Positions 1-43,724 of a stretch of DNA of 50,536 bases are shown here, one piece after another. The position numbers and the translations under genes are program-made. Source of the stretch: a virus; the IMG/VR virus record IMGVR_UViG_3300048562_000008. One strand, 5' to 3'. The number at the start of each line of letters is the position of its first letter. Positions within the stretch are counted from its first letter, which is position 1. The notes beneath the pieces are model-generated. The model was not told where the DNA came from and did no database searches. It saw nothing but the letters and a program-made list of their open reading frames with translations.

Positions 1-127
1 TGCCGTCATTTGTGCAGGCGAAGCCGGAGCGAGTTCGCTCCGGAGCACTTCGGTGGAGGAGAACTGGCGCTTCACGACGTGCGCTTCTTCCGGCGGGCCT
101 CAGTCCGCTCCAGCCGCCAGTGCAGCG
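1..127. repeat. 127-bp terminal identity with 50410..50536 (circular closure, assembly overlap or terminal redundancy)
   Basis: Bases 1..127 (tgccgtcatttgtgcagg...ccagtgcagcg) are repeated exactly at 50410..50536. Gene order is continuous across the junction. Confidence 0.9.
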
Positions 128-338
128 TCTGGAGGGCGTGCAGGGTCGCGGCCGGGACGATGTCCTTGACCAGGCTGCGCCCGTCGAGCTTGACCGCCGA
201 TTCCTTCGGCTGCGGCGGCGCCTTTCGCTCGGGCTTCCGGCTCGGGTTGTCCGTGCCATGAACCACGTCGAAGATTGGCATGGGCCGCTTCTTGAGCAGC
301 TCCAGCGGCGTGAGCTTCGGTGACTTTTCGTCGGACAC
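72..338 (-). CDS. hypothetical protein (88 aa) whose C-terminus LHWRLERTEARRKKRTS is shared with 50209..50484
   Basis: GTG start preceded by AAGGAGG. High GC3. The stop lies in a GTGA overlap with the next cassette gene. Confidence 0.65.
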   Translation of the reverse strand: MSDEKSPKLTPLELLKKRPMPIFDVVHGTDNPSRKPERKAPPQPKESAVKLDGRSLVKDIVPAATLHALQTLHWRLERTEARRKKRTS

Positions 339-386: not shown

Positions 387-465
387 TGGAGCTGCTCGGA
401 GTCGAACCGAGGTCCGCGGCGTTCCCTCTCGGGCCTTGCGCCACGTCGATGCCGTTCTCAGCCCC
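387..465 (-). ncRNA. tmRNA-like tRNA-like-domain-only RNA (mini-tmRNA / alanine-identity tRNA-like RNA)
   Basis: The minus strand reads GGGGCTGAGAACGGCATCGACGTGGCGCAAGGCCCGAGAGGGAACGCCGCGGACCTCGGTTCGACTCCGAGCAGCTCCA. It forms a 7-bp acceptor stem GGGGCTG/CAGCTCC with G3:U70 and A73, and a T arm CTCGG-TTCGACT-CCGAG preceded by GGAC. The D-analog GGCATCGACG resembles the tmRNA 5' end. There is no anticodon arm and no tag ORF. Confidence 0.6.
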
Positions 466-523: not shown

Positions 524-730
524 CTACTCGTCGTCCGCCTCGGGAGCGAACGCGCCCTGGCCGTGGCCGATGAGCGCCTCGATCAGGAACCCCACGTCGT
601 GCGCGTCGAGGGCGCAGACGATGGGGGGACGATCCTCGCCCGGCAGGCTCATCGTGAGCAGGATCGTGCCGGGCAGGTCGCCAATCTCCAGCGTGGAACC
701 GCCAGACATCGGGAACTCCATCTTACACAT
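524..730 (-). CDS. hypothetical small acidic protein (68 aa)
   Basis: ORF with very high GC3 in the operon orientation, tightly packed behind the upstream micro-ORF. Confidence 0.6.
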   Translation of the reverse strand: MCKMEFPMSGGSTLEIGDLPGTILLTMSLPGEDRPPIVCALDAHDVGFLIEALIGHGQGAFAPEADDE

Positions 731-1771: not shown

Positions 1772-1801
1772 AGTATATCGCGCGAAGGGGGTGTTTGTCA
1801 A
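1772..1801 (-). promoter_or_regulatory. sigma70-type promoter (TTGACA-18-TATACT)
   Basis: The minus strand reads gcccTTGACAaacacccccttcgcgcgaTATACT. It is nearly identical to the sites at 45787..45816 and 48321..48350. Confidence 0.75.
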
Positions 1802-1826: not shown

Positions 1827-2690
1827 CTAGTAGTTGCAGTAGTCGCAGGCGTCGTCCCACGCGCCCTCGCCGTCGCCCCACAGGTCACCATCGTCCTCGT
1901 AGTCGTACGGCTTGACTGCCGTGGTGTACGGCTGGTCGATGATGTCGATGACGACGTACCGGCACGTGCGCATCTTCTGCGCGGAGCAGTCGGTCGGGAC
2001 GCTCACCACGTCGCGCGGGTGGACATGCACCTCCAGGAGCGCGCCCTGGGCGAACCCGTTGGCGTACTCGTAGGTGCCGACGTGCAGACCGGTGTGGCAG
2101 CCGACGCTCGGGTCGTGCTGAACCTCACCGCGCGGCATCTCGATGACGCTGCCGAGGTTGTTCGGGATCGCCCCGCTGACCTCGACGCCGTCCACGATGG
2201 CCCGGCCGCGGTTGATGGACTCGTAGCCCTCGCCGGTCGGGCGCACGCCCTTGTACCCGACGATCATGCCGTCGACCGTGATGGTGAAGGCCCCCGCGGC
2301 GAGCCAGGCGTAGAGCTGCTCGCGGCTGTGCTCGTTCGGGTTGCTCTGCACGTTCTCGAAGAACCTGACCAGCGGCAGCCAGTCGTTGACGCCCTCGTCC
2401 AGGAACCGGAGCACCTGCTCGGTGAGCGCGTTCGCGATCTCCTCGCCGTCGAGGTACAGCCGACCGTTCTTGGTCGTGACCCGCTCGGAGAGCCGCTCGA
2501 ACTTCTGGCCCACCGTGGCGGCGACATCGAACAGGGCGACGATGCTCTCGTCGTTGGCGAGTGCCAGCGCGACGATCTTCGCGAAGTTGGGGTGCGTGCT
2601 GTGGGCGACCTGCGGTGCAGCGCCCGGGACGAACACGACGATGTTGGAGTCGCCGTCGTCGTTACCGATGAGGGTGAACTGAACTGACAT
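1827..2690 (-). CDS. rIIB: rIIB-like protein
   Basis: The C-terminal block LLEVHVHPRDVVSVPTDCSAQKMRTCRYVVIDII matches T4 rIIB VVKVKVHPRDVVSIPIDYNDAKMRTCQYEVVEDV, recalled from memory. It lies directly downstream of the rIIA homolog. ATG at 2690 with a GAAGGGAG RBS. Confidence 0.85.
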   Translation of the reverse strand: MSVQFTLIGNDDGDSNIVVFVPGAAPQVAHSTHPNFAKIVALALANDESIVALFDVAATVGQKFERLSERVTTKNGRLYLDGEEIANALTEQVLRFLDEGVNDWLPLVRFFENVQSNPNEHSREQLYAWLAAGAFTITVDGMIVGYKGVRPTGEGYESINRGRAIVDGVEVSGAIPNNLGSVIEMPRGEVQHDPSVGCHTGLHVGTYEYANGFAQGALLEVHVHPRDVVSVPTDCSAQKMRTCRYVVIDIIDQPYTTAVKPYDYEDDGDLWGDGEGAWDDACDYCNY

Positions 2691-2695: not shown

Positions 2696-4660
2696 TCAGC
2701 TCCCTTCTGCGGCGTGCGCCGCGTTGATGTAGGTGACGGCATGCTTGAGTATGTCGCCGTACAGGTCGTACTGCGGAGCGAGCAGCGGGTACTTGTCGAG
2801 CGGGTTGTCGGGCACCTTCGGAGCCTCCACCCAGGAGGCCCAGGTGACGAGCTGGGTCTTGATCGCCTTCGTGTCGTGGGTCGCGAGCTTGATGCCCTCG
2901 ACCACGGCGGGGTCGGTCACGCCGGTGAGCTTCTTGAGCTTGTTCAGCTCGCGGTTGCCCACGGTGCGCTGGAACTGCGCCGCCTTGAGGGTGTAGGCGT
3001 CCCACCCCTTAACGACCTGCTTGACGTAGGCCGCGGCGTACTGCGTCACGCTCTGCGCCATCGGGAAGTCACGCTTGAACTTCTCGACGCGGTTCGCTTC
3101 GAGGCAGACCACCAGCATGTCCTCGGGGATCATGCCGAGACGCACCTCGTTGCTGTTCTGGAGCGACCAGCGGTTGCCCTGGTAGTATAGCACAGGCTTG
3201 CTGGTGTCGATTTTCTCGGCCAGGATCGGGGCGTCCCAGCGCCCGGCCACCCGGCCCTTGTACGCGCCGCGCGGCCCAGCCTTGCGCGGGTTCGCGGGAT
3301 CGCGGGGGAGCTTGATCGCGTCGATGGTCGCCCAGTCGATGACGGTCGCGCCCTCCAGCCAGAACCGCTCGGTCGCGTTGAAGCGGCCGGGCACGAACAC
3401 GTACCGGGCCGTGTTGTCCGGGATGCCTCCGTTCTTCGCCCAGTAGTAGTCGAGCTTGGCGCGCTTCGTGGCGGTGAATGTTGCGCCCTCGAAGTTCTCG
3501 AAGTAGATGTTGGCGAGGTCGATGTTGGCCGCGCTCTGCCACGATCCGGTCAGCCTGTAGGTGCTGCTTCGGTGCGGTGTGGCGACCAGGTACGTCTCGG
3601 CCGCCTGCCGGACGTGGCCCTGGGCGTCGGTCGGTTCGCGGGAGAGGTCGCCCTGCATGGGCCTGCCGCGGTACGACGCCTCGACGGTGAGGCCAATGAC
3701 GCGCGCCTGCTGCCAGATACGGATGGCCGCAACGGGCGTCTCGGCCGCTGCTATGTTCGCGAGGAGAGCGTCGTTGAGCCTGCTGTCGCGCTCGACCTTG
3801 AGCGCCTCCAGGGTGTCCTTCGTGAGCTTGGTCATCTGGAGCGCCTCACGGCTCGGGGTGAACTGCACCGCCCCGATGGGCACGAAGGCCACCGTGTGAT
3901 CCCGCCGGTAGTACGGGCGGCGATTGTTTTTGTCCGCCGACAGCGGATCGTCCGCGACGGGGTAGGGCACGTTCCCCATGACCACGGTGTCCTCGGACAC
4001 CTCGGTCGTGATGAGGATGCTGTCGGTGATCCACTGGCCGTCGATGCGCTTCGGCTCCTCGCCGTTGACCAGCACGGTGCCGGGCTGCCAGAAGCGGAAG
4101 AACTCGTGCGCCTTGCTCTCGAACTTGTGGTGGCGCTTCGCGGGGATCGTGACCTCCACGCCCGGCAGGTCGTCGGTGTCGTGCTCGGCCACGATGGTCA
4201 TGCTGCCCGCGCCGTCCTCGTCCCGGCCGATGAGCACCTGGATCATGCGTCCGTCCTTGATGCCGGTGAGCGTGAACTGGTCGGTGTAGGTCAGGGCCGA
4301 CTTGCAGCCGAGGCCCAGCATCCCCACCACGTCGTTGCTCTGGCGCTTCGTGCTCGTGCCGTAGCGGGAATAGATGTCCCGGATGCCGTCGCCGTCCAGG
4401 CCGATGCCGTAGTCCCGGATGCGCAGGAAGGGCGACAGGGGGCTGGGGAGCGTGACCTCGATGGGGCGCTTCGTCCCGGCCTCGATGTGGCTGTCCAGCG
4501 CGTTCGTGCTGTACTCCCGGATGACGGCGGCCTCGGGGTCGGAGTAGAGGTCGGTGAGCACCGACATGATGTGCGCGAGCGCGCTCGTGTCGATGGTCAT
4601 GCCGACCTTCTCGCCGCTCACGTGGCCCTGTACGTCGAGCACTCTGTCAACTACCTTCAT
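2696..4660 (-). CDS. rIIA: rIIA-like protein with an N-terminal GHKL (HATPase_c) ATPase fold
   Basis: The motifs LYSDPEAAVIREYSTNALDSH, DYGIGL, GMLGLGCKSALTYTDQFTLT and FTPSREAL align with T4 rIIA [41 protein letters not shown] and APSREAL, recalled from memory. Confidence 0.9.
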   Translation of the reverse strand: MKVVDRVLDVQGHVSGEKVGMTIDTSALAHIMSVLTDLYSDPEAAVIREYSTNALDSHIEAGTKRPIEVTLPSPLSPFLRIRDYGIGLDGDGIRDIYSRYGTSTKRQSNDVVGMLGLGCKSALTYTDQFTLTGIKDGRMIQVLIGRDEDGAGSMTIVAEHDTDDLPGVEVTIPAKRHHKFESKAHEFFRFWQPGTVLVNGEEPKRIDGQWITDSILITTEVSEDTVVMGNVPYPVADDPLSADKNNRRPYYRRDHTVAFVPIGAVQFTPSREALQMTKLTKDTLEALKVERDSRLNDALLANIAAAETPVAAIRIWQQARVIGLTVEASYRGRPMQGDLSREPTDAQGHVRQAAETYLVATPHRSSTYRLTGSWQSAANIDLANIYFENFEGATFTATKRAKLDYYWAKNGGIPDNTARYVFVPGRFNATERFWLEGATVIDWATIDAIKLPRDPANPRKAGPRGAYKGRVAGRWDAPILAEKIDTSKPVLYYQGNRWSLQNSNEVRLGMIPEDMLVVCLEANRVEKFKRDFPMAQSVTQYAAAYVKQVVKGWDAYTLKAAQFQRTVGNRELNKLKKLTGVTDPAVVEGIKLATHDTKAIKTQLVTWASWVEAPKVPDNPLDKYPLLAPQYDLYGDILKHAVTYINAAHAAEGS

Positions 4661-7396: not shown

Positions 7397-7837
7397 GGCA
7401 AAACAGGCCCCCCGGTAGCAAGCACTGTGGAACAGGTCACAGAGAGCGCGTCCCCGCTCCCTTGGCGTCCGCGGGCACGCTGGAACGATGGATGGAGACG
7501 TAGTGAGTACTGGGGCGCAGCCCCTAATTGTTAGGCCCCCGGCAGTGCTACCGGCGGGTCCAACCGCTGCTACAAGCGCCTACCGTATAGACAACAACCA
7601 CCTCGGCTAGGGTTCTCTAGCCTGGCACGGCAGCGAGGTGGGAATACCGCAGCCCCTACCGGCGTTTACTACACTAGGACGGGTCCGGCCCCCAGGTGTC
7701 GATAAGGGGGCCGGACGGCGGGGAATGGACCCTGCCCTCTACACCTGCCAGGGGCGGGGGAGCGACCCCCCGGAGCGACTCCCGCACCGCTCAAGTCATC
7801 ACGCGCGCGATCCGCTGGGACAGACACACCCCAAAAG

Positions 7838-7856
7838 GGTACTCTATGAGTAGAGG
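7838..7856 (+). repeat. 19-nt AT-rich repeat GGTACTCTATGAGTAGAGG, copy 2
   Basis: Exact copy of 7378..7396, lying 28 nt upstream of the first tRNA. Confidence 0.85.
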
Positions 7857-7883
7857 CCCGTTTTGCGACGCAGCCTCAACCGT

Positions 7884-7954
7884 GCATCGTCCTCCGGGAG
7901 GCCCAGCGGCTCCAACCCGCCGGGAGCAGCGTTCGACTCGTTGACGGTGTGCCA
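7884..7954 (+). tRNA. tRNA-Trp(CCA), reduced D arm
   Basis: Acceptor GCATCGT/ACGGTGT (2 GU pairs), then G and CCA. D hairpin CCTC-cgg-GAGG. Anticodon loop CTCCAAC. T arm CAGCG-TTCGACT-CGTTG. 68 nt before the CCA. Confidence 0.55.
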
Positions 7955-7955
7955 T

Positions 7956-8032
7956 GCACGCGTAGCTCAGTCAGTGAGAGCGTCGGCTTGCCAAGTCGAA
8001 GGTCGCGGGAGCAAAGCCCGCCACGTGCTCCA
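7956..8032 (+). tRNA. tRNA-Gly(GCC)
   Basis: Acceptor GCACGCG/CACGTGC (1 mismatch). D arm TAGCTCAGTCAGTGAGAGC. Anticodon loop TTGCCAA. T arm GCGGG-AGCAAAG-CCCGC. CCA is encoded. Confidence 0.7.
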
Positions 8033-8085
8033 TGGCGAAACGGGGTCGGCCACCGGCCGTGTACCCGGAGTAGCCTCCCTTTCAA

Positions 8086-8161
8086 GCCGCTGTAGTGTCA
8101 GCACTCAGCACACCTGCCTTCCAAGCAGGGGGCCTCGGTGGGAATCCGAGTAGCGGCTCCA
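8086..8161 (+). tRNA. tRNA-Gly(TCC)
   Basis: Acceptor GCCGCTG/TAGCGGC. Anticodon stem CCTGC/GCAGG with loop CTTCCAA. T arm CTCGG-TGGGAAT-CCGAG. CCA is encoded. Confidence 0.65.
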
Positions 8162-8235
8162 ATTCCCCGCAGCATCCAACGACACGTCTTCACCCATACC
8201 CAGAGACGTTGCAGGCAGCGCGGGGAACCTCCTTC

Positions 8236-8308
8236 GGGGCCAGCCAGAAGGCTGGGGGCCAGGCTTGCACCCTGCGCCAGTAGGGCGCGATACCCTATGG
8301 CTCCACCA
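8236..8308 (+). tRNA. tRNA-Ala(TGC), reduced D arm
   Basis: Acceptor GGGGCCA/TGGCTCC with G3:U70. D hairpin CCAG-aagg-CTGG. Anticodon loop CTTGCAC. T arm TAGGG-CGCGATA-CCCTA. CCA is encoded. Confidence 0.55.
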
Positions 8309-8382
8309 TCTTGCCCGGACTAGGGGCATACACGACGGCGCGCTGCTAGTCCCAGCGCGCCAACTGCCATCTCGTACGACAT

Positions 8383-8468
8383 GCGGAGGCGTCGGAGTTG
8401 GAGAGCCGAGACGGGCTGTAACCCCGTTGCCACAGGCTGAGTGAGTTCGAATCTCACACCCCGCACCA
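8383..8468 (+). tRNA. tRNA-Tyr(GTA), long variable arm
   Basis: Anticodon stem ACGGG/CCCGT with loop CTGTAAC. D stem TCGG/CCGA. Variable arm of 13 nt. T arm GTGAG-TTCGAAT-CTCAC. The acceptor has 2 mismatches. CCA is encoded. Confidence 0.65.
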
Positions 8469-8469
8469 T

Positions 8470-8545
8470 GTTGACGTAGCTGAGTCAGTTCAAGCACCGG
8501 GTTGAAACCCCGGGGACGCAGGGGCGGAACCTGCCGTTGACACCA
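8470..8545 (+). tRNA. tRNA-Phe(GAA)
   Basis: Acceptor GTTGACG/CGTTGAC (2 GU pairs). Anticodon stem CCGGG/CCCGG with loop TTGAAAC. T arm GCAGG-GGCGGAA-CCTGC. CCA is encoded. Confidence 0.65.
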
Positions 8546-8616
8546 TGTTCGAGAGCCTTCGTGGTCCGAAGTACAAGGGCTGGGCCGGACGCATCGCGCC
8601 CCTCTCGGCACACCTT

Positions 8617-8689
8617 CTCGTCGTAGCTCAGTGGACAGAGCGCAGCCCTGCGAAGGCTGAGGCCGGTGGTTCGACCCCACCCGTCGAGA
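8617..8689 (+). tRNA. tRNA-Arg(GCG)
   Basis: Acceptor CTCGTCG/CGTCGAG. D arm TAGCTCAGTGGACAGAGC. Anticodon stem CAGCC/GGCTG with loop CTGCGAA. T arm GGTGG-TTCGACC-CCACC. No CCA is encoded. Confidence 0.75.
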
Positions 8690-8696
8690 CCTACAA

Positions 8697-8767
8697 GCCC
8701 ACGCCGCTAGTGCGGCCTCTCCCCTGGTACGGGAGGGAACCTGGCGCGAAACCAGGCGTTGGCTCCA
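8697..8767 (+). tRNA. tRNA-Thr(GGT), reduced D arm
   Basis: Acceptor GCCCACG/CGTTGGC (1 mismatch). D hairpin CCGC-tagt-GCGG. Anticodon stem CTCCC/GGGAG with loop CTGGTAC. T arm CCTGG-CGCGAAA-CCAGG. 68 nt before the CCA. Confidence 0.55.
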
Positions 8768-8768
8768 T

Positions 8769-8843
8769 GAGCCGCAAGTCTCAAGTGAGATCCCTGGGCT
8801 GTGAATCCGGGCGGGCTGGGCGCGATACCCAGGCGACTCTCCA
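8769..8843 (+). tRNA. tRNA-His(GTG), reduced D arm
   Basis: Acceptor GAGCCGC/GCGACTC (1 mismatch). D hairpin TCTC-aagt-GAGA. Anticodon loop CTGTGAA. T arm CTGGG-CGCGATA-CCCAG. CCA is encoded. Confidence 0.55.
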
Positions 8844-8850
8844 TCTTCAT

Positions 8851-8925
8851 CCGTCGGTACGCTAACTGGCAAACGGCCTGGCTCTTACCCAGGTATTCTA
8901 GGTTCGACCCCTAGGCGACGGACCA
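8851..8925 (+). tRNA. tRNA-Lys(CTT)
   Basis: Acceptor CCGTCGG/GCGACGG. Anticodon stem CCTGG/CCAGG with loop CTCTTAC. T arm CTAGG-TTCGACC-CCTAG. CCA is encoded. Confidence 0.75.
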
Positions 8926-9195
8926 TTTCGGCAGGACAGACCAGCGCGGCGACTCTGACTTTACGGGCGCCGAGGAAGGTCGGGACACCTGACCCCGGGG
9001 CGGACAGAACCGGGCGAAACGTGCCGCAGCCAACAGGGAGCCTCCGGGCGTCACACCTGAACGCCGGGCGGGGTGCAACCTCAAGAGGACGGCCACCGCA
9101 GGCTGGACGGGTAGAGGGCAGCGCGACGGCGCATCCGCAAGGATAGACAGATGCTGGTCCACGACAAAATCCCGCCTACAAAGCCGAAACACCCC

Positions 9196-9272
9196 GCACC
9201 GCAAGTCCACCGGTTGTGGACGATGTCCTGATAAGGCATTTGAGCTAGGTTCGACTCCTAGGCGCTGCACCA
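9196..9272 (+). tRNA. tRNA-Ile(GAT)
   Basis: Acceptor GCACCGC/GCGCTGC (1 mismatch). D stem GTCC/GGAC. Anticodon stem ATGTC/GGCAT with loop CTGATAA. T arm CTAGG-TTCGACT-CCTAG. CCA is encoded. Confidence 0.75.
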
Positions 9273-9273
9273 C

Positions 9274-9346
9274 CTCCTCGTAGCTCAGCGGACAGAGCGG
9301 CACGTTTCTACCGTGCGCGCCGGGCGTTCGACTCGTCCCGAGGAGT
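9274..9346 (+). tRNA. tRNA-Arg(TCT)
   Basis: Perfect acceptor CTCCTCG/CGAGGAG. D arm TAGCTCAGCGGACAGAGC. Anticodon stem GCACG/CGTGC with loop TTTCTAC. T arm GGGCG-TTCGACT-CGTCC. Confidence 0.8.
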
Positions 9347-9365
9347 CTACTTGACAGGTACGCAT

Positions 9366-9441
9366 GGCCCGGTCGTCTACAGGTTGTGGACACTCGGCTC
9401 TCAACCGAGAGGTCAGGGATCGTTACCCTGTCGGGCTACCA
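9366..9441 (+). tRNA. tRNA-Glu(CTC)
   Basis: Acceptor GGCCCGG/TCGGGCT (GU pairs). D stem GTCT/GGAC. Anticodon stem CTCGG/CCGAG with loop CTCTCAA. T arm CAGGG-ATCGTTA-CCCTG. CCA is encoded. Confidence 0.65.
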
Positions 9442-9537
9442 TTTTCGAGAGATGTAGGATCAGCACGAGGCGCCCCGCTATAACGGGATAAAGCGGACGC
9501 TGCCCCTGATGGCTGGTTCGTCCCGAGGCATTTTCCA

Positions 9538-9613
9538 CGCTCCATAGCTCAGCGAACAGAGCAGCGGGCTTCGAACCCGCGTGTCGGAGGTTTGACTCCT
9601 CCTGGGGCGTCCA
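9538..9613 (+). tRNA. tRNA-Arg(TCG)
   Basis: Acceptor CGCTCCA/TGGGGCG. D arm TAGCTCAGCGAACAGAGC. Anticodon stem GCGGG/CCCGC with loop CTTCGAA. T arm GGAGG-TTTGACT-CCTCC. CCA is encoded. Confidence 0.75.
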
Positions 9614-9617
9614 TCGT

Positions 9618-9691
9618 GTCGACGTGGCCGAGCGGCAAGGCACTGGGTTGCAACCCCAGCTACGCAGGTCCGAACCCTGCCGTCGATTCCA
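9618..9691 (+). tRNA. tRNA-Cys(GCA)
   Basis: Acceptor GTCGACG/CGTCGAT. Anticodon stem CTGGG/CCCAG with loop TTGCAAC. T arm GCAGG-TCCGAAC-CCTGC. CCA is encoded. Confidence 0.7.
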
Positions 9692-9796
9692 ATTCCATCC
9701 CAACCGCGCTTGACCAGCCGAGAACCCTTCGGGGGGTAGCAGAAATGGTCTCTGCATACGGGATGACAGCACCGCCCCGACTCCAACAACTTTCAT

Positions 9797-9873
9797 CCGC
9801 GAGTAGCTCAGTCCAGGAGAGCGCCTGCCTTACAAGCAGGGCGTCGGGGGAGCGAAGCCCTCCTTGCGGACCA
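9797..9873 (+). tRNA. tRNA-Val(TAC)
   Basis: Acceptor CCGCGAG/CTTGCGG. D arm TAGCTCAGTCCAGGAGAGC. Anticodon stem CCTGC/GCAGG with loop CTTACAA. T arm GGGGG-AGCGAAG-CCCTC. CCA is encoded. Confidence 0.75.
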
Positions 9874-9876
9874 TTT

Positions 9877-9961
9877 GCCCCAGTGATGGAACTGGTAGAC
9901 ATGACCGGCTCAGACCCGGTTGCCGAGAGGCGTGAGGGTTCGACTCCCTCCTCGGGGCACC
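9877..9961 (+). tRNA. tRNA-Leu(CAG), long variable arm
   Basis: Leu-type D region TGATGGAACTGGTAGACAT. Anticodon stem ACCGG/CCGGT with loop CTCAGAC. Variable arm of 13 nt. T arm GAGGG-TTCGACT-CCCTC. The acceptor GCCCCAG/CTCGGGGC has one extra nt. CCA is encoded. Confidence 0.65.
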
Positions 9962-9967
9962 ACTTCA

Positions 9968-10042
9968 AGCCGGACAGGTGTAGACAGCGACATCCCTGTT
10001 TCGTAATCAGGGGAGCGCGGTGCAAGTCCGTGGTTCGGCTCC
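9968..10042 (+). tRNA. tRNA-Thr(CGT)
   Basis: Acceptor GCCGGAC/GTTCGGC. Anticodon loop TTCGTAA on a 4-bp stem. T arm CGCGG-TGCAAGT-CCGTG. CCA is encoded. Confidence 0.6.
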
Positions 10043-10049
10043 AGCTTCA

Positions 10050-10125
10050 CCCACGTGTCGTTCAATTGGTAGGACGCGCCCCTGTTAAGGGCAGAATCTA
10101 GGTTCGAGACCTAGCGTGTGGGCCA
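10050..10125 (+). tRNA. tRNA-Asn(GTT)
   Basis: Acceptor CCACGTG/CGTGTGG (GU pairs). D arm GTTCAATTGGTAGGAC. Anticodon loop CTGTTAA. T arm CTAGG-TTCGAGA-CCTAG. CCA is encoded. Confidence 0.75.
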
Positions 10126-10131
10126 CTTCGT

Positions 10132-10206
10132 CTGAGAGTCCTCTAACCGGTAGGAGACCTGGCTCTGAACCAGGCAATCTAGGTTCGATCCCTAGCACTC
10201 AGGCCA
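10132..10206 (+). tRNA. tRNA-Gln(CTG)
   Basis: Acceptor CTGAGAG/CACTCAG (1 mismatch). Anticodon stem CCTGG/CCAGG with loop CTCTGAA. T arm CTAGG-TTCGATC-CCTAG. CCA is encoded. Confidence 0.75.
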
Positions 10207-10213
10207 TATTCAT

Positions 10214-10288
10214 CGAGACGTAGGCATCTAGTGAGGCCGCGCGGCTGTCTACCGCGTGAGGCGGGTGCGATCCCCGTCGTCTTGACCA
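10214..10288 (+). tRNA. tRNA-Asp(GTC)
   Basis: Acceptor CGAGACG/CGTCTTG. Anticodon stem CGCGG/CCGCG with loop CTGTCTA, which has an unusual T at position 37. T arm GCGGG-TGCGATC-CCCGT. CCA is encoded. Confidence 0.65.
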
Positions 10289-10294
10289 CTTCAT

Positions 10295-10372
10295 CCGAAA
10301 GAGGCGGTGGTAGATCCGCACCCGGTTCGGAGCCGGGAGACCTCGCTGGTGCAATTCCAGCCTTTCGGACCA
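10295..10372 (+). tRNA. tRNA-Pro(CGG)
   Basis: Perfect acceptor CCGAAAG/CTTTCGG. D stem GCGG/CCGC. Anticodon stem CCCGG/CCGGG with loop TTCGGAG. T arm GCTGG-TGCAATT-CCAGC. CCA is encoded. Confidence 0.7.
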
Positions 10373-10378
10373 TTTCGA

Positions 10379-10451
10379 CGCGGGTTACTTCCGGTGACGT
10401 AGACGGCCTCATAAGCCCTCCAGACGAGTTCGACTCTCGTACCCGCTACCA
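10379..10451 (+). tRNA. tRNA-Met(CAT) (elongator, initiator or Ile2 not resolved)
   Basis: Anticodon loop CTCATAA. T arm ACGAG-TTCGACT-CTCGT. The acceptor CGCGGGT/ACCCGCT has a 1:72 mismatch, which is initiator-like. Short D arm. CCA is encoded. Confidence 0.6.
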
Positions 10452-10501
10452 CCGTGCCCCGTGCGCGCGCCCGTTGGGGCGCTGGCGGCGGGGATCCCCT
10501 T

Positions 10502-10586
10502 GGAAGGTCGCATTGGCGTGCTTATGCGGTTCGAACCCGTTGATGGCCTCACGGCCGTGGGAGTTCGACTCTCCCACCTTCCTCCA
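10502..10586 (+). tRNA. tRNA-Ser(CGA), long variable arm
   Basis: Perfect acceptor GGAAGGT/ACCTTCC. Anticodon loop TTCGAAC on a weak 4-bp stem. Variable hairpin GGCC-tcac-GGCC. T arm GGGAG-TTCGACT-CTCCC. CCA is encoded. Confidence 0.6.
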
Positions 10587-10593
10587 GTTTCAT

Positions 10594-10679
10594 GGAAAGC
10601 GTCCGAATGGACGAGGACCCGCCCTGCTAAGGCGGCGCGCCGCAAGGCGTTGAGGGTTCGATGCCCTCGCTTTCCTCCA
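10594..10679 (+). tRNA. tRNA-Ser(GCT), long variable arm
   Basis: Perfect acceptor GGAAAGC/GCTTTCC. Anticodon stem CCGCC/GGCGG with loop CTGCTAA. Variable hairpin CGCC-gcaa-GGCG. T arm GAGGG-TTCGATG-CCCTC. CCA is encoded. Confidence 0.75.
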
Positions 10680-28127: not shown

Positions 28128-28940
28128 ATGGGCGTTCTCAGCAGTGTAGTAGACGCGGTATTCGGCAAGTCCCCCGTGCAGGAGGACCCGCTGTTCAAGT
28201 ACCGCCAGGGCGAGGCCGGGCAGGTCCCGGGCACCGGTAACGTCGCGCAGGCGTATCTGCAGGGCAAGCAGCTCTACGGCAACGCGCTCATCAAGTACAA
28301 CCAGGAGCGCACCAGCACGGCCCAGGGCTTCGGCTATCAGGGCGACATCGACCCGACCACGGGCGTGATGACCAACCTCCGCGTCGACCAGACGAACCCG
28401 TACGGCGCGTACCAGATGAACCGGCGGGCGCACGCGGACCAGTGGGACGCGCTTCGCCAGCAGAACGCAAGTCGACGCATCGGAGGCAAGGGACTCGGCG
28501 CGCAGGCGCAGAGCGACGCCCGCTTCGTGTGGGGCGGCGAGGACGCTGCGCAGGCCCAGGACTTCATCGGGCGACTCGCAGGCATCGACCAGGGACAGCA
28601 GCAGGCGTACCAGGGATGGCAGGACACGTACTGGAACGCGCTGGCACAGCAGACCCGCGACGCCATCGAGCAGCAGCGGTTCGACCAGGCGATGGCTCGC
28701 GGATCCGAGGAGGACTACGCGGGCAGCACCGGCGGTGGAGCCACCACCAAGGCAGCGGCCTACCCGACTTCCGGCCCCGCCTGGGGACCCGCGCCGTCCG
28801 CCGCGATGAAGAAGATCATCGCGGGCATCCAGAAGGTACCGGCCAAGGCTCCGGTCAAGTCGCCAAGCACCACCCTCACCCCGGCCAAGACCGCAGCACT
28901 CAACGCGGCCATCAGGGCCGCATCCAAGAAGAAGAAGTAG
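28128..28940 (+). CDS. internal virion protein-like (270 aa)
   Basis: Gln-rich with a Lys-rich tail, inside the run of three genes that precede the largest virion protein. Confidence 0.5.
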   Translation: MGVLSSVVDAVFGKSPVQEDPLFKYRQGEAGQVPGTGNVAQAYLQGKQLYGNALIKYNQERTSTAQGFGYQGDIDPTTGVMTNLRVDQTNPYGAYQMNRRAHADQWDALRQQNASRRIGGKGLGAQAQSDARFVWGGEDAAQAQDFIGRLAGIDQGQQQAYQGWQDTYWNALAQQTRDAIEQQRFDQAMARGSEEDYAGSTGGGATTKAAAYPTSGPAWGPAPSAAMKKIIAGIQKVPAKAPVKSPSTTLTPAKTAALNAAIRAASKKKK

Positions 28941-36708: not shown

Positions 36709-37659
36709 TCACCCCCTCCCGCGCGTGACGTAGTTGCTCCACCCCGGCGAGGTGAGGGAGAAGTAGCCGTCCTTGGCGATATGGCCGTACCCCTGCGTCC
36801 ACTCCGGGAAGTTGGTGCTCCGCTGGAGGTACTCCACCGGGTCCTTGGTGTGCAGCCCGCCCAGCTCGGCCACGATGAACTGGCCTGAGCGGTCGTACCC
36901 GACGGCGGCGTGGTGCGAGTGCCCCGTCAGTACGTGGGAGAGCTTCTTGCCCGCGAGCTTGATCGCGCTCGTGAGCGGCACCTGGCTGTACGTCTTCGGG
37001 TGCGCGACGTAGTACGGGCCGCGCGGGGTGTCGATCCAGACGTGGTCGAGGTTCGAGAACGTGATCCGCTTGAGCAGCTTCGGGTCGAGGTCCTCGAACA
37101 TCATCTTCATCGCCTTGATGAAGTCCACCTTGTACCCCAGGGCCTTGTGCATCCGGGCGTCGTGGTTGCCCCACGAGAAGAACACCCACTTGAAGGTCTT
37201 GAGTACCGCCTCCATCGTCTCGGTCGACGCGAACATCTCCCGATCCAGCCCGGCCTGGCTCTGCTTGTAATCGAACTGCGAGAGCGAGTCCACGTTGAAC
37301 CAGTCACCCGCGACGACCAGCCAGTTCGTGGCCTTGATGTCGCGCGAGTGATCGATGAAGGTGTTGACCAGGTCGTAGTCGCACAGCGGGTGGTGCCAGT
37401 CGGCAGTCACCGCGCCCGCGCCCAGCTCACCCACGTCCACGCGCAGCGGCTTTTCCAGCTCGGTGCGCAGGCGGGTGATGGTGGCGGTGGGCAGGAGGTA
37501 CGGCTTGTAGCCGACGCTGTTCAGTCCGCGCCGCACCGAGGCCTCGTCCACCCCGGTCATGTTGCCGATCTCCCTGTTCGTGTAGCGTCGGCCGGTGGCC
37601 GGGTTGACCTGATCCCGCAGCGCAGCATAGATCGCGGGGTCGTTCTTCCTTTCAGCCAT
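36709..37659 (-). CDS. calcineurin-like metallophosphoesterase with an N-terminal HTH
   Basis: Motifs VVAGDWFN, WGNHD and TGHSHH. The N-terminus carries YTNREIGNMTGVDEASVRRGL. Confidence 0.8.
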   Translation of the reverse strand: MAERKNDPAIYAALRDQVNPATGRRYTNREIGNMTGVDEASVRRGLNSVGYKPYLLPTATITRLRTELEKPLRVDVGELGAGAVTADWHHPLCDYDLVNTFIDHSRDIKATNWLVVAGDWFNVDSLSQFDYKQSQAGLDREMFASTETMEAVLKTFKWVFFSWGNHDARMHKALGYKVDFIKAMKMMFEDLDPKLLKRITFSNLDHVWIDTPRGPYYVAHPKTYSQVPLTSAIKLAGKKLSHVLTGHSHHAAVGYDRSGQFIVAELGGLHTKDPVEYLQRSTNFPEWTQGYGHIAKDGYFSLTSPGWSNYVTRGRG

Positions 37660-37969
37660 TGCGGCCTCCGTTCATCTCGTAGGTGAGGTTCTTGATGGCG
37701 GTGACGTACTCACGCGCCACCCAGCTCTTGGACTTCTCGAAGTACCCAGCGGCCTCGCGGACGGGCACCCCGAGCACCCCGCAGACCAGCACCATGTCCT
37801 GGGAGGTCAGCGAGAGCCGACGGTACGCCAGCTTGAGGTCAGCGACGGCGACGAGGGTGCGCAGGCCCCGCTCCGTGGTGTCTCGATCCTCCAGCGCAAC
37901 AGCGTACTCCTCGATGTACGCTCGAACCTCTGTCTCACGGTACCTACCTCCCCTCGTCCTCGTCATCAT
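37652..37969 (-). CDS. sigma-70 region-4-like HTH protein (105 aa)
   Basis: The pattern LSLTSQDMVLVCGVLGVPVREAAGYFEKSKSWVAREYVTAIKNL matches a sigma region 4 layout. It overlaps the upstream sigma-2-like ORF by 26 nt in another frame. Confidence 0.55.
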   Translation of the reverse strand: MMTRTRGGRYRETEVRAYIEEYAVALEDRDTTERGLRTLVAVADLKLAYRRLSLTSQDMVLVCGVLGVPVREAAGYFEKSKSWVAREYVTAIKNLTYEMNGGRNG

Positions 37970-38231
37970 GCATCTCCTCGATGTAGGGGGTGACCTCGGC
38001 CGAACCTCCGCGCTTCTCGGCGCCCATCTTGCGGACGTACTTGAGCATCACGCCGCGGACGACAGCCGCACTGGGGCGGGCACCACGTGCGAGAGTCTCC
38101 CACACGGCGATCAGCCCCTCCTGCACGAGGTCCTCGTGCTCAACTCCGGTGCGGGACATGCGCCCCGGCCGCACGATGCGCGCGGCCAGGGCTTCGCAGA
38201 GGTCGCGGTACTCGGCTACCGCTGCGCTCAT
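37944..38231 (-). CDS. sigma-70 region-2-like protein (95 aa)
   Basis: Motif HEDLVQEGLIAVWETL (region 2.1/2.2-like) and VMLKYVRKMGAEKR. The ATG is 5 nt after the SSB stop. The track ORF 37944..38375 is trimmed. Confidence 0.55.
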   Translation of the reverse strand: MSAAVAEYRDLCEALAARIVRPGRMSRTGVEHEDLVQEGLIAVWETLARGARPSAAVVRGVMLKYVRKMGAEKRGGSAEVTPYIEEMHDDEDEGR

Positions 38232-38235
38232 GTCT

Positions 38236-38601
38236 CTACCAGGTGGTGTCGTCGTCGTCATCGCCCGCGTCGTCGTCCGAAGTGGACTCCGTCTCGACGC
38301 CGTAGTCGGCCTTGCCGAGGACAGCGAAGGCGTTGGCGGAAACATTGAAGTAGGTCTTCGGATTCCCTTCGCCATCCTTGCCCTTGTTGACCGCGAACTT
38401 GCCGTCCACGATCACGATGTCACCCTTCTCGACCTTGATCGCCTCGTGGTTCGGCCAGAGCGTGATCGACACGAGCTGGGCCTGATCCTTCAAGCCGACC
38501 TGGCGGATCGTGACGTTGCGGACGGGCTTGCCCGCGGCCTCACGATCCACCGGGTCGAACTGGACGATGCCGATGAAGGTTCTGTATTGAACGTCAGACA
38601 T
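38236..38601 (-). CDS. single-stranded DNA-binding protein
   Basis: OB-fold-sized 121 aa with an acidic C-terminal tail DDDAGDDDDDTTW, inside the replication module. Confidence 0.75.
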   Translation of the reverse strand: MSDVQYRTFIGIVQFDPVDREAAGKPVRNVTIRQVGLKDQAQLVSITLWPNHEAIKVEKGDIVIVDGKFAVNKGKDGEGNPKTYFNVSANAFAVLGKADYGVETESTSDDDAGDDDDDTTW

Positions 38602-39113
38602 TATGACCTCTTTCTCTTACGTCGTTTGTTTGTGACCCGCCCCTTGCGGCCGTACACCTCTCCGAGGACGCGAACAGCGGGCGGTGATTCCAGGTAGTCC
38701 GCAGCGTTGCGGAGCGCCTGGGGATTCTCGCGGGCCGCACCTAGCAGCCGCGTGTTGCAGTGCCAGCAGAGCAGACCTCGGGTGAGTCCCGTCTTGTGGT
38801 CGTGGTCTACACTAAGGCGGACGTTCTTAGGGGGTCTGCCGCAAATGGCGCAGCCCCCTCCCTGCGACTCCAGCAGCTCGTCGTACTGCGCAGACGTTAT
38901 GCCGTACAGGCGCATCAGACGAGTCTCTCTGTTACGGTCGCTGGCACTTCGCGCGGCCGTAGCCTCCCGAACCTCGGGCTGCGTGCGGTACCGCTTACCG
39001 GCGTACTCCCGCGTACACTCCTTGCACCGATTGACGTGGCCGTTTGCTCGGCTCTTGTCACGGTGGAACGAGGTCAGCGGCTTTTCCACGCCGCACGTGC
39101 GACATACCTGCAT
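38601..39113 (-). CDS. recombination endonuclease VII
   Basis: Signature CAICGRPPKNVRLSVDHDHKTGLTRGLLCWHCN. TGATG overlap with the upstream gene. The track ORF is trimmed to MQVCRTCG. Confidence 0.85.
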   Translation of the reverse strand: MQVCRTCGVEKPLTSFHRDKSRANGHVNRCKECTREYAGKRYRTQPEVREATAARSASDRNRETRLMRLYGITSAQYDELLESQGGGCAICGRPPKNVRLSVDHDHKTGLTRGLLCWHCNTRLLGAARENPQALRNAADYLESPPAVRVLGEVYGRKGRVTNKRRKRKRS

Positions 39114-40498
39114 CAGTAGTCCGTCTCGTCCGACTCGTCGTAGGCGCGGAGGCTTACACGCCCTTCGTCGCCCTCGACTCGCTCTGTCAGCATCGACTCG
39201 CCCCACGGCGGGGTGTTGCGGAGCTTGTCGGGCTGCACCCACTGCCGCCCCGTCTCGTATTCTTCGGTACCCTTGCCGCTGGGGTGGGGCCGGGTCTTGG
39301 TCTGCTGCCGAACGCTCAGGTTGAGATCGGCAGCCGCCGGAAGGGCCGTCGACCCACGCGCACCGCCATGCTTGGCTAGGTGGTGGATCATAATGACGGT
39401 CGTATCCAGCTCTCGCGCGATGGGGTAGATCCCGCCGTTCATCAGGGGGTTCATGTCCTCCGCGCTGTTCTCGTTCTTGAAGTGCATGCGGCTGATCGAG
39501 TCGAGGATCAGCAGCCGGGGCCGCACGATCTCGCAGTACTCAAACAGCAGCTCAGGATGGGCGTCGAGACGCACGCCCTGGTACCACAGGTAGTGGATGT
39601 TGTCGGACACCTCGGTCTGACCCTCCTGCATACCCAGCAGGGTCAGCCGCCTGCGCGCGGTAACCTGGGGATTTTCTTGGTCTACGATGACCACCGGGCC
39701 GTGATCCAGCACCGGCATGCCCAGCCACGCGTCCCGCAGCCCGGCCACGCAGAGCGCGAGGTCGAGCGTGAGCCAGGACTTGCCGACACCCGGGTCGCCC
39801 GCCACCATGACCACGTCGCCCTTGGCGATCAGGTCGGTCACGAGCCAGTCGTACTCGGGCACCGGCCCCGCGAGGTCGAGCCGCTGGAACGGCAGCTTGA
39901 CATCGAGGGCCTGGTCGAGCAGCACCCTGAACGCGGGCCACCCGTACCGGGAGAAGAAGTCGCACACGTCGTTGACACCCTGCGGGAGGAAGACGCGCCG
40001 CACTCGGTTCGCGCCGAGGCTGGCCTTGATCTTCTTGAACCCGCGGTCGCCGCTCTCCGCTGCGTTCGCGTTCTCGTACGGGTCGTCGTTGTCCATGATG
40101 ACGAAGATGATCTCCGCGTCAGCGAAGTCATCCGCGAAGTGGGGCTTCCAGGACTCGGTGCCCGGCAGGCCTCGTACGAGCTGCTTGACCGCAGCCGGTG
40201 CGTGCTGCCAGAGGCACATCGTGTCCGTCTCGCCCTCCACCAGGAGCATCTTCTTCCCCCCGGCCGCGCCGGGCGGGGTGAACATTGCTTGACCGTGCTT
40301 GTCGGGCGGGTCCCACCAAAACTCGCGGCCCTCCTTCTCCAGCCCCTTCCGGTACTTGGTCGCCCCCGGGTACGGCATCTTGATGATTGGCAGGTCGTCA
40401 CGGACGCCGTCCTGCTCGATGCTGAACGCGGAGAGCGTCTCCGCGGTGATGCCACGACGGTCGAGGAACCACCTAGCGACGTTCGGATTTACTGCCAT
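39113..40498 (-). CDS. bifunctional primase (TOPRIM) / RecA-fold replicative helicase
   Basis: TOPRIM motifs LLVEGETDTMCL and IFVIMDNDDP. Walker A GDPGVGKSW. Walker B LLILDSISR. Confidence 0.85.
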   Translation of the reverse strand: MAVNPNVARWFLDRRGITAETLSAFSIEQDGVRDDLPIIKMPYPGATKYRKGLEKEGREFWWDPPDKHGQAMFTPPGAAGGKKMLLVEGETDTMCLWQHAPAAVKQLVRGLPGTESWKPHFADDFADAEIIFVIMDNDDPYENANAAESGDRGFKKIKASLGANRVRRVFLPQGVNDVCDFFSRYGWPAFRVLLDQALDVKLPFQRLDLAGPVPEYDWLVTDLIAKGDVVMVAGDPGVGKSWLTLDLALCVAGLRDAWLGMPVLDHGPVVIVDQENPQVTARRRLTLLGMQEGQTEVSDNIHYLWYQGVRLDAHPELLFEYCEIVRPRLLILDSISRMHFKNENSAEDMNPLMNGGIYPIARELDTTVIMIHHLAKHGGARGSTALPAAADLNLSVRQQTKTRPHPSGKGTEEYETGRQWVQPDKLRNTPPWGESMLTERVEGDEGRVSLRAYDESDETDY

Positions 40499-40507
40499 AT
40501 CACCTCC

Positions 40508-41056
40508 CTAGTTGTAGGCGACGTACAGCCACTCGCTCCTGAACCTGGCCCACGCCTTGTCGGACGACCACGGCTTGATCGGCTCCCGGTACGACAGCAG
40601 GGCCGGGAACTCCCCGAACTCGGGGTGCATGAGGTCGCGGGCCTCCGCGGCTAGCAGGGCGTTGTCGATGGCGTGGACGATGGGCGGGAACGGGTAGATC
40701 AGGTCGTACCGCTCGCTGATCGCGGCCTGTAGTCCGTCCTCGATGTCCCGGTAGCCGTCACCGAATCCCGCCGCGTGCTTCACCGGCCGGGCGATGTCGC
40801 TGAGGTACGCCTCGCTGGCATCGTGCAACAGCACTGTGCGCAGTAGCTGCGTGTCGTCGTACTCGCCCCCCAGCGTGTACGCCAGGTCGAGGCAGCGCAC
40901 GCTGTGCTCCGCCACGCTGTAGAAGTACTTGACGTGTCCGGTGAAGCGGCACTGGTTGCTCAGGCTGTGCGCGATGTCGTTGATGTCGAGCAGCGCCGGG
41001 TCGGGATTGATCGGGTCGAAGCGCGTCCCGCCGAACGTGATGATCGAGCTGCTCAC
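40508..41056 (-). CDS. HD-domain phosphohydrolase
   Basis: AEHSVRC...LLHDASEAYLSDI motif (H...HD...D). Confidence 0.8.
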   Translation of the reverse strand: MSSSIITFGGTRFDPINPDPALLDINDIAHSLSNQCRFTGHVKYFYSVAEHSVRCLDLAYTLGGEYDDTQLLRTVLLHDASEAYLSDIARPVKHAAGFGDGYRDIEDGLQAAISERYDLIYPFPPIVHAIDNALLAAEARDLMHPEFGEFPALLSYREPIKPWSSDKAWARFRSEWLYVAYN

Positions 41057-41520
41057 TGCCGCAGCCCGGGTGGACGGTACGACAGCGACGGCTGCGGGAA
41101 GTCCGGCACCTTGACGCTGTACTCTGGCTCCTCCAGGGACTCCAGGAACTCGTCGCCGCTATCGTAGATGCCGTTTTCCAGGTCGAACATGAGGCGGTCG
41201 AGCACGTACTCCGCGGCGTTGATATTGAAGAACACCGCAGCCGCGTGATCCTCGTCCCGCTCGCCGTTGAGCCACTGCTCGAAGTGCCGGGCCGCGGAGT
41301 CCTTGAACCGCTCCAGCTCCTCCTCGGAGTTGGCGAGCGTCCAGTTGTCCCGCCCGTACTTGACCGCGCCCTTCGTGAGGTGGATCGCCCACCGCATGAA
41401 CATCGGGCCGCTGCGGATCAGGCGCACCATGGGCTTGTCGTCCTGCACGTCACGCACCATACCGGACGCGAACTCCTGGCGCTGGCCGCTGTCCTTGACG
41501 ATGAACTGGTCAGAGTTCAT
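41053..41520 (-). CDS. putative dNTP pyrophosphohydrolase-like protein (155 aa)
   Basis: The pattern KYGRDNW...ARHFEQW...DEDHAAAVFFN resembles phage dATP/dGTP diphosphohydrolase domains, recalled from memory. The track ORF is trimmed to MNSDQF. Confidence 0.5.
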   Translation of the reverse strand: MNSDQFIVKDSGQRQEFASGMVRDVQDDKPMVRLIRSGPMFMRWAIHLTKGAVKYGRDNWTLANSEEELERFKDSAARHFEQWLNGERDEDHAAAVFFNINAAEYVLDRLMFDLENGIYDSGDEFLESLEEPEYSVKVPDFPQPSLSYRPPGLRQ

Positions 41521-41725
41521 CGCGGAAGTCCTGCTCCACGTCGGCCACCGTGAAGCGGTCGAGGCCGATAGCAAAACCGCGGTTAGTGCGCATGATCGCG
41601 TCCTCAACCGCGGTAATGGCGATTGAGAACTCTCGCGCTGCGGGACTGCGGCCGGTGTCCTCCCGGATGTTCTCCAGCGCCGTCAGGGCCTGCTTGAGGA
41701 TGCTTACTACTGTCGGTAGGGCCAT
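41510..41725 (-). CDS. hypothetical protein (71 aa)
   Basis: Track ORF with high GC3 that overlaps the next gene by 11 nt. Confidence 0.55.
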   Translation of the reverse strand: MALPTVVSILKQALTALENIREDTGRSPAAREFSIAITAVEDAIMRTNRGFAIGLDRFTVADVEQDFRDEL

Positions 41726-41733
41726 GGTGCCTC

Positions 41734-43001: not shown

Positions 43002-43010
43002 GAAGCCCTC

Positions 43011-43634: not shown

Positions 43635-43724
43635 GGCTTACTCTCTGTGTAGGGCCACGGCCAGTCGTAGTGCTGGTCGTCCCACCACTGGTTATCCAGC
43701 CAGGCGATCCAGCGACGATATAGG

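Follow-up and report, generated by a model that had tools for sequence, protein, structure and literature searches.

A phage tmRNA gene predicted to be reduced to its tRNA-like domain belongs to a structurally conserved family that includes the RNA of mycobacteriophage DS6A

Phages carry several forms of transfer-messenger RNA (tmRNA) gene, including the full-length tmRNAs of cluster C mycobacteriophages (e.g. Bxz1) and Bacillus phage G and two-piece forms such as that of the marine phage Melnitz, which often lie in or near tRNA arrays, retain both the tag open reading frame (ORF) and the pseudoknots, and are found by ARAGORN. A reduced form is also on record: ‘Mycobacterium phage DS6A (TLD only)’, where TLD denotes the tRNA-like domain, is listed by Hudson, Lau and Williams (2014), citing Mao et al. 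(2009), and Nawrocki, Petrov and Williams (2025), with the same citation, group DS6A with the tmRNAs of mitochondria and two plastids that lack a coding sequence (CDS). This literature proposes that the DS6A molecule titrates SmpB and inhibits tmRNA, and an experiment known through two secondary citations is reported to have found inhibition of tmRNA in E. coli that was independent of chargeability. The CDS-less tmRNAs of jakobid and oomycete mitochondria (RF02544; PMC11915505) and the ~65-bp plastid forms of Mallomonadaceae (PMC3590771) likewise consist of a TLD without a tag frame, but they are products of the reductive evolution of a resident gene and the sole tmRNA of their compartment, with imported SmpB, whereas a phage form is an extra gene entering a cell that has a complete tmRNA, and hence a likely competitor. 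We found no paper on such phage elements beyond DS6A in the open full-text literature, and surveys of tRNA arrays mention only ARAGORN-detectable tmRNAs. A 79-nt element of this kind had been predicted from the letters alone in a 50,536-nt viral contig (IMG/VR record IMGVR_UViG_3300048562_000008; the whole stretch is hereafter called the window). The original prediction knew of no described phage element like it, which the DS6A entry (Mao 2009; Hudson 2014; Nawrocki 2025) corrects.

Here, we characterize this element by sequence analysis, assign it together with DS6A to a family, and propose that it is a DS6A-type TLD-only tmRNA that, on balance, probably competes with host tmRNA and suppresses SsrA tagging. 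The kind itself was already known through DS6A; the size and conservation of the family, its association with tRNA arrays, the apparent selection on its alanine identity and its cultured carriers are new.

The TLD-only tmRNA gene is 79 nt long and occupies window positions 387–465 on the minus strand, so that RNA position i corresponds to window position 466−i. Read 5’ to 3’, its sequence is GGGGCUG AGAACGGCAUCGA C GUGGCG CAAGG CCC GAGA GGG AA CGCCGC G GAC CUCGG UUCGACU CCGAG CAGCUCC A, with the following parts:

387–465, minus strand: whole TLD-only tmRNA gene (Rfam tmRNA model RF00023, 49.5 bits, E = 2.3e-19; family covariance model R1, 62.5 bits)
459–465, minus strand: 5’ strand of the acceptor stem, GGGGCUG, with G3 of G3:U70 at 463 (sequence; pairing probability at least 0.99)
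446–458, minus strand: D-loop analog AGAACGGCAUCGA with the GG..UCGA motif (aligned to the RF00023 consensus cuGGaUUCGAC)
439–445, minus strand: 5’ strand of the P2 helix, C-GUGGCG (pairs with 415–421)
422–438, minus strand: 17-nt insert of loop CAAGG, hairpin CCC-GAGA-GGG and AA (stands in place of the tag ORF and pseudoknots)
415–421, minus strand: 3’ strand of the P2 helix, CGCCGC-G (pairs with 439–445)
395–414, minus strand: GAC spacer and T arm CUCGG-UUCGACU-CCGAG (aligned to the RF00023 T arm)
387–394, minus strand: 3’ strand of the acceptor stem, CAGCUCC (U70 at 390), and discriminator A73 at 387 (sequence and folding; CCA unencoded)

The acceptor stem GGGGCUG/CAGCUCC thus has G3:U70 and A73, and A73 is followed by UGAUCC, leaving no encoded CCA. 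The D-analog (..GGCAUCGAC) reads AUCGAC where the RF00023 consensus has UUCGAC, and it has no D stem. P2 forms with pairing probabilities of at least 0.97 and comprises 6 bp, or 7 bp counting the flanking C:G; above it, a 5/2-nt internal loop leads to the 3-bp hairpin, and folding revealed no anticodon arm. Because the 17-nt insert contains no stop codon in any frame, a terminated tag ORF is excluded. The consensus TLD fold has an energy of −34.6 kcal/mol, compared with −35.9 for the minimum free energy structure. Single-sequence RNAfold favours an alternative pairing of the T region (T-stem probability ~0.15), which we judge to be an artefact of ignoring tertiary contacts because of the family covariation described below. 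The original prediction had the coordinates right, as it did the 185-nt protein-free gap and the flanking genes on the same strand, all of which lie on the minus strand. The acceptor with G3:U70 and A73, the GGAC, the T arm and the D-analog it described are all present in the sequence, and its 6-bp helix with CCC-GAGA-GGG in place of the tag ORF and pseudoknots is confirmed, with the additional C:G pair and the 5/2 loop.

The RF00023 match, which exceeds the gathering score of 47, was obtained by searching the element and its surroundings (93 nt) alone with laxer filters. It covers model positions 1–371 of 374 with 310 positions replaced by the 17 nt, and its alignment takes in the acceptor stem, D-analog, nine P2a pairs, GGAC and T arm. 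Pseudoknots PK1–PK4 are absent from the element, falling within the deleted 310 positions, and the 17 nt between the P2 strands hold no mRNA-like domain (resume codon, tag ORF, in-frame stop). The family model R1 matches the element with E = 2.6e-13. Both matches go far beyond what chance would give. Judged by its sequence, the element keeps only the tRNA-like domain of tmRNA, with neither tag ORF nor pseudoknots, which bears out the earlier reading of an alanine-identity TLD. Checks proposed with that reading came out in its favour: RF00023, searched on the element alone, spans both termini, and ARAGORN, RF00005 and folding gave neither a tRNA call on the element, nor an anticodon arm, nor a tag ORF.

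Detection depends strongly on the search. Rfam with default filters at gathering thresholds reported only tRNAs and missed the element, and an E-value search of 400 nt returned its 3’ half alone as a weak match to permuted-tmRNA models; the earlier RF00023 negatives are filter artefacts. RF02544 was not among the reported window matches, a list in which overlapping lower-scoring matches of the same clan would be hidden. ARAGORN found no tmRNA and no tag peptide in the window and called 18 tRNAs instead. That program labels some relatives of the element tRNA-Pyl(cta), tRNA-Ser(cga), tRNA-Ile or tRNA-???, as might be expected of an aberrant tRNA, for instance a suppressor or tRNA-Ala variant that decodes codons. 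However, the element has no D stem and no anticodon arm but instead a 7-bp helix and a 3-bp hairpin with a variable tetraloop, and ARAGORN and RF00005 are silent on the window element, which RF00023 matches. We give the odd-tRNA reading next to no credence and reject it on the structure, which lacks a cloverleaf, and on the RF00023 match.

We located the DS6A element (tmRNA Website tmID 11587 / Phage__Mycobacterium.9) with R1 at 28478–28557 (L063), between gp33 and gp34, where it scores 59.5 bits as against 62.5 for the window element; literal patterns had missed it, its acceptor and spacer being different. The two elements, 80 and 79 nt long, follow a single layout: acceptor, D-analog and P2 come first, then the A-rich loop and the hairpin, and finally the T arm and A73. 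They are alike in having G3:U70, no tag ORF and no encoded CCA, and both are actinophage elements placed between genes, in the orientation of their neighbours. They differ in acceptor (GGGGCCG in DS6A versus GGGGCUG), spacer (GCAC versus GGAC) and hairpin (CCGCACGCGG versus CCCGAGAGGG); the DS6A insert reads GAAAA-CCGCACGCGG-UA, and its inner motif AAAACCGCACGCGG is common to metagenomic members. The phages themselves are unlike: DS6A, a temperate siphophage of 60 kb, encodes an integrase and lacks a tRNA array, whereas the window comes from a large phage that has rIIA/rIIB genes and at least 18 tRNAs and in which no integrase was seen. These features mark the window element as a DS6A-type TLD-only tmRNA of the same family. 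By comparison, an actinobacterial tmRNA (L089) has only generic TLD features in common with it.

Further members were collected from IMG/VR by pattern scans. The first scan, which required both tmRNA termini within ~80 nt, returned 62 loci and 33 distinct sequences besides that of the window, on contigs ranging from 33% to 71% GC. Acceptor sequence was fixed in the first two scans; the third used internal anchors only (TCGAC..AANCCGCANGCGG..GGACNNNGGTTCGA), leaving the acceptor unconstrained, and added 29 further distinct sequences, with all newly returned loci recognised by R1 at 59.9–89.5 bits. R1 itself was built from nine gapless 79-mers with an explicit structure, and its matches outside the family are tRNAs, the best at 27.8 bits. 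In total, the family comprises 103 loci and 59 distinct sequences in IMG/VR; an R1 scan of the window found no second copy there.

Members share a common plan: the acceptor stem, a GG..UCGAC D-analog, P2, a purine/A-rich 5’ loop, a hairpin, 1–3 nt, the T arm and A73. Both the GG and the UCGAC of the D-analog are conserved, the latter to be read in light of its having been fixed by every search pattern used. P2 is typically 5–10 bp long and runs from right after UCGAC to right before GGAC, and overall lengths are 67–86 nt with a mode of 78–79, which the 79-nt window element matches. The hairpin has 3–4 bp and a tetraloop, most commonly as CCGCAYGCGG, with loops that vary among members (GAGA, CACG, CAUG, GUAA, CAAG, GAAA); CCC-GAGA-GGG of the window departs from the common form, and the pairs covary. 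Since the combination of an A-rich 5’ loop (AAAG/AAAA), tetraloop hairpin and 1–3 nt recurs in most members and in DS6A, the insert between the P2 strands is not arbitrary.

When unanchored sequences were aligned with MAFFT and RNAalifold, P2 was misplaced and no stems other than the acceptor and T stems were recovered; an anchored parse was used instead. In a covariation alignment of 35 members, which is model-guided and hence favours pairing, standard pairs fill 96.1% of cells, compared with 37–50% when partners are slid by 1–3 columns. Both-sided changes occur in 15 of 22 pairs, among them 7/7 in P2, 3/3 in the hairpin and 4/5 in the T stem (pairs 1–4), and none of 500 shuffles reached the covariation score. 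The independent anchored parse gave the same compensatory changes as the model-guided alignment. The secondary structure is under selection. A hidden short tag was also considered, with stop triplets present at the P2/loop junction in some members; it is ruled out, as these triplets are not in a conserved frame and the window has none.

Such conservation bears on whether the element has any function at all. It might be the relic of a phage attachment site (attP) that targeted ssrA, given that tmRNA genes are common integration sites and that ssrA fragments occur in prophages, or else a captured host tmRNA gene in decay. Yet both termini are present in gene order, whereas an attP carries the 3’ part alone; DS6A’s own attB is a tRNA-Lys gene, not tmRNA; and 59 distinct viral sequences keep all helices by compensatory change, which a decaying relic would not. 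Moreover, no integrase, recombinase, transposase catalytic or SmpB domain was found among 52 scanned ORFs of the window, which is only part of a genome. We regard a functionless relic as extremely improbable and reject it on the two termini, the covariation and the lack of an integrase domain among those ORFs; an attP remnant had been thought unlikely from the outset, on the same first and last grounds.

The acceptor stem offers a more specific signal. In all 29 members found with the acceptor unconstrained, the stem is paired at 7/7 positions and G1:C72, G2:C71, G3:U70 and A73 are invariant, while positions 4–7 covary (GGGCCUG/CAGGUCC, GGGGGUG/CACCUCC, GGGUCUG/CAGAUCC and others); two of the 29 encode CCA. 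Invariance of the identity set within an otherwise covarying stem is what one would expect were recognition by alanyl-tRNA synthetase (AlaRS) important, and it argues for purifying selection on the alanine identity set and for alanylation of the RNA.

Engineered TLD fragments, which combine the acceptor, the T arm and a truncated P2 closed by a small loop, have served in structural and kinetic studies of SmpB, EF-Tu and the ribosome. In vitro they are reported to be charged with alanine, to bind both SmpB and EF-Tu, and to reach the A site of the ribosome. These are laboratory constructs, to which the natural family adds the conserved A-rich asymmetric loop and hairpin. If the element competes with host tmRNA, as we propose, it would be transcribed together with the flanking small genes and excised in the manner of a tRNA, with RNase P making the 5’ end, trimming making the 3’ end and the host CCA-adding enzyme supplying CCA. 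Host AlaRS would then charge it with alanine through G3:U70 and A73, and host SmpB would bind it. Lacking a resume codon, a tag ORF and a stop codon, the RNA could not carry trans-translation to completion and would most likely compete with host tmRNA for SmpB, with EF-Tu and stalled ribosomes as probable further targets. The outcome would be less SsrA-tagging and protein degradation in the infected cell. What we observed is homology, structure, family membership, identity conservation and the lack of coding capacity; from established tmRNA biology we infer how the RNA would be processed and charged, that it would bind SmpB and what it would do to the host. Competition for SmpB fits the reported inhibition in E. 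coli, and the decoy or inhibitor idea of the original prediction agrees with the role proposed in the literature for the DS6A molecule.

Several points weigh against this proposal. The inhibition experiment, as the secondary sources relate it, was an over-expression in E. coli, and these sources disagree as to what was tested, the RNA of DS6A itself or ‘a similar molecule’. Pure SmpB titration, in which a non-chargeable molecule inhibits, would leave the conservation of G3:U70 and A73 unexplained. The window element has no encoded CCA, though most window tRNAs encode theirs, and clustering of the neighbours of 106 loci revealed no recurrent partner (SmpB, Pth, ArfB, AlaRS or CCA-adding enzyme) beside the element. 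Finally, some phages are known to need trans-translation, so the benefit of inhibiting it is not self-evident.

A different use of the same charged RNA, tag-free rescue, is possible, if rather unlikely in our estimation. Here alanyl-TLD with SmpB and EF-Tu would enter non-stop ribosomes, take over the nascent chain and add only alanine; ArfB, ArfA/RF2 or else drop-off and Pth would then free the peptidyl-TLD, so that ribosomes are recycled and phage proteins stay untagged, the purpose being rescue and not tmRNA inhibition. Invariance of G1–G3:U70 and A73 in 29/29 members alongside covariation elsewhere in the stem suggests that charging is required, as it would not be for a pure SmpB sponge, and placement among tRNAs in translation-supporting arrays also fits, as does the view that CDS-less mitochondrial tmRNAs co-occurring with SmpB help with incomplete mRNAs (PMC11915505). 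However, no release mechanism is encoded nearby, the missing stop codon would leave the ribosome with a peptidyl-TLD and an empty A site, and the sole reported experiment, as conveyed by its secondary citations, is one of inhibition regardless of chargeability.

Of the 59 distinct elements at the 103 viral loci, 12 are within 300 nt of a tRNA on their own strand and 10 come from loci that hold five or more tRNAs; in examples such as L012, L031, L037, L051 and L056, the element is embedded in the array on the same strand. The remaining viral elements are on tRNA-less contigs. One tRNA-less actinophage lineage has WhiB, a PD-(D/E)XK nuclease, endonuclease VII, primase and a DnaB-like helicase as neighbours, and the clustering of 106 loci recovered lineage synteny only. 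Some of the element-bearing phage arrays also hold ARAGORN calls of tRNA-SeC(tca) and of tRNA-??? with 2-nt anticodons (L037:1203-1277; L046; L051:9717-9790), which may be suppressor or otherwise atypical tRNAs.

Using the window element alone, blastn returned no match in 50,697 phage records. A concatenated query of 27 diverse members identified homologues in five isolated Streptomyces phages, LuckySocke, GiJojo, pSt2308, Alone3 and BRock, which are large phages with tRNA arrays and have no close DNA similarity to the window. The LuckySocke copy scores 81.3 bits with R1 and 57.1 bits with RF00023, and the BRock copy 67.9 bits with R1. In both of these phages the element is part of the tRNA array, with tRNA-Val(tac) and tRNA-Ser(gct) on either side and genes for an RNA ligase and a phosphoesterase nearby, whereas the window element lies outside its array. 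GenBank records of the five isolates and of DS6A carry no RNA annotation of the element; its site is featureless in four of the five isolates and covered by a hypothetical-protein CDS in GiJojo. There is thus an annotation gap: ARAGORN overlooks or miscalls the family, and Rfam default filters can overlook members that score above threshold. Among the miscalls are members labelled tRNA-Pyl or tRNA-??? (e.g. L046:6659-6748 and L054:9508-9600).

RNA-repair genes are often present in carriers of the element: in LuckySocke and BRock the RNA ligase and phosphoesterase genes follow it downstream at a distance of a few kb, and DS6A encodes an RtcB-like RNA ligase (L100:5679-6761 and 7488-8078; L101:6035-7114 and 7814-8069; L064:301-1503). 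Their presence hints at a link to RNA-damage or tRNA-cleavage defence.

The family extends into cellular genomes. A relaxed pattern applied to one bacterial or archaeal genome per species returned 35 loci, ~30 of which score with R1. Actinomadura sp. 3N407 has two copies (L090:4640-4718, 63.5 bits, and L090:4935-5013, 57.9 bits) in a 20-tRNA array on a 279-kb contig, and Hydrogenophaga has one (L098:5894-5973) within a 17-tRNA array; several metagenome-assembled genomes of Actinomycetota, Chloroflexota, Gemmatimonadota and Patescibacteria are also carriers. The element behaves as a tRNA-type gene, placed on the same strand in phage and bacterial tRNA arrays alike, and the locations of its copies indicate that the family is carried by mobile tRNA arrays, not by phages alone.

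These placements also bear on the idea that the element is a processing signal, at which RNase P and RNase Z cut an operon transcript to separate its cistrons and release an RNA with no role of its own. The window element does stand between two small same-strand ORFs of one putative transcription unit, and relatives in tRNA-less actinophages stand between replication genes. But many copies are in tRNA arrays already rich in processing sites, and any tRNA-like fold would suffice for cleavage, leaving unexplained the invariant alanine set, the tmRNA-specific D-analog, the GGAC and the inner hairpin kept in phages of 33–71% GC. We consider this explanation improbable.

Two bacterial subgroups are conserved within their lineages, one in Nostoc/Tolypothrix and the other in Eremiobacterota. 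Nostoc, Tolypothrix and related cyanobacteria have a common 81-nt variant that scores 44–52 bits with R1 (L069, L073, L083, L086, L087 and L099; e.g. L073:6918-6998), and four of the six copies are ~100–130 nt from a suppressor-like ARAGORN call of ‘tRNA-Pyl(cta)’. Nine Eremiobacterota / WPS-2 / Vulcanimicrobiota genomes have a conserved TLD-only form of 72–74 nt, GGGGCGGUUCGAUGGNGUCGAC...GGGUUCGAUUCCCGYCCGCUCCA, at L066, L067, L068, L074, L075, L084, L088, L092 and L094 (e.g. L088:262-334, chromosome OY970335.1). These copies score 33–41 bits with R1, lie on long chromosomal contigs and in most cases are flanked by gct upstream and gcccgg downstream; some of them are mislabelled tRNA-Ser(cga) or tRNA-Ile by ARAGORN. 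Rather than phage cargo, the Eremiobacterota form could be a tag-less tmRNA-like gene of the chromosome that occurs throughout the lineage.

Within the window, the protein-free gap around the element measures exactly 185 nt (339–523) and is bordered by minus-strand ORFs, with a promoter-like site further upstream:

524–730, minus strand: upstream ORF of 68 aa, same strand as the element (no family match)
72–338, minus strand: downstream ORF of 88 aa, same strand, with an AAGGAGG ribosome-binding site (no family match)
1772–1801, minus strand: promoter-like site TTGACA-18-TATACT (11/12 match to a sigma-70-type consensus; 0.0 expected in shuffles)

The small ORFs at 72–338, 524–730, 737–862, 863–1090 and 1295–1741 gave no Pfam or PHROG match. 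Directly upstream of this unit are an rIIA-like gene (2696–4660, minus strand, 654 aa, phrog_612, E = 1.7e-95) and an rIIB-like gene (1827–2687, minus strand, 286 aa, phrog_609, E = 4e-55). The promoter-like site at 1801–1772, a consensus match only, lies just downstream of rIIB and could drive the small-ORF unit that includes the element, and an ‘early operon’ placement is plausible.

Other window proteins include the large terminase, portal, major head protein, family-A DNA polymerase, primase/helicase and tail proteins, and DNA similarity is limited to short matches to the Streptomyces phages Coruscant and Kenrey. ARAGORN’s 18 tRNAs form an array at 7956–10679 on the plus strand, ~7.5 kb from the element and on the opposite strand. 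An additional tRNA at 9797–9870 on the plus strand (Rfam, 50.8 bits), unlisted by ARAGORN, brings the array to at least 19 tRNAs, and several of the ARAGORN-called window tRNAs fall below the Rfam gathering list. The family-A DNA polymerase (PF00476, phrog_17) is matched by two separate window ORFs (ORF set 36709–47795, minus strand, among others), which suggests a split or interrupted polymerase gene. The window also has a HylP-type hyaluronidase domain and two metallophosphoesterases.

With 59 distinct sequences on viral contigs and further copies in bacterial tRNA arrays, the family is common. It may, as a tentative and on present evidence doubtful extension, be an old, horizontally spreading phage family with its own A-rich-loop/hairpin module that depends on alanylation and reprograms host ribosome rescue, a translation-level counter-defence or takeover travelling with phages and mobile tRNA arrays. 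If so, it might come into play where mRNAs are truncated by host defence or by phage nucleases, for example by rescuing ribosomes tag-free or by preventing tagging. The five cultured Streptomyces phage carriers make knock-outs and biochemistry possible, and the function of the element in infection is thus testable. Why phages carry tmRNA genes is the wider question, and the tag-less form poses it most sharply, as it would be able only to interfere with tagging or to bypass it.

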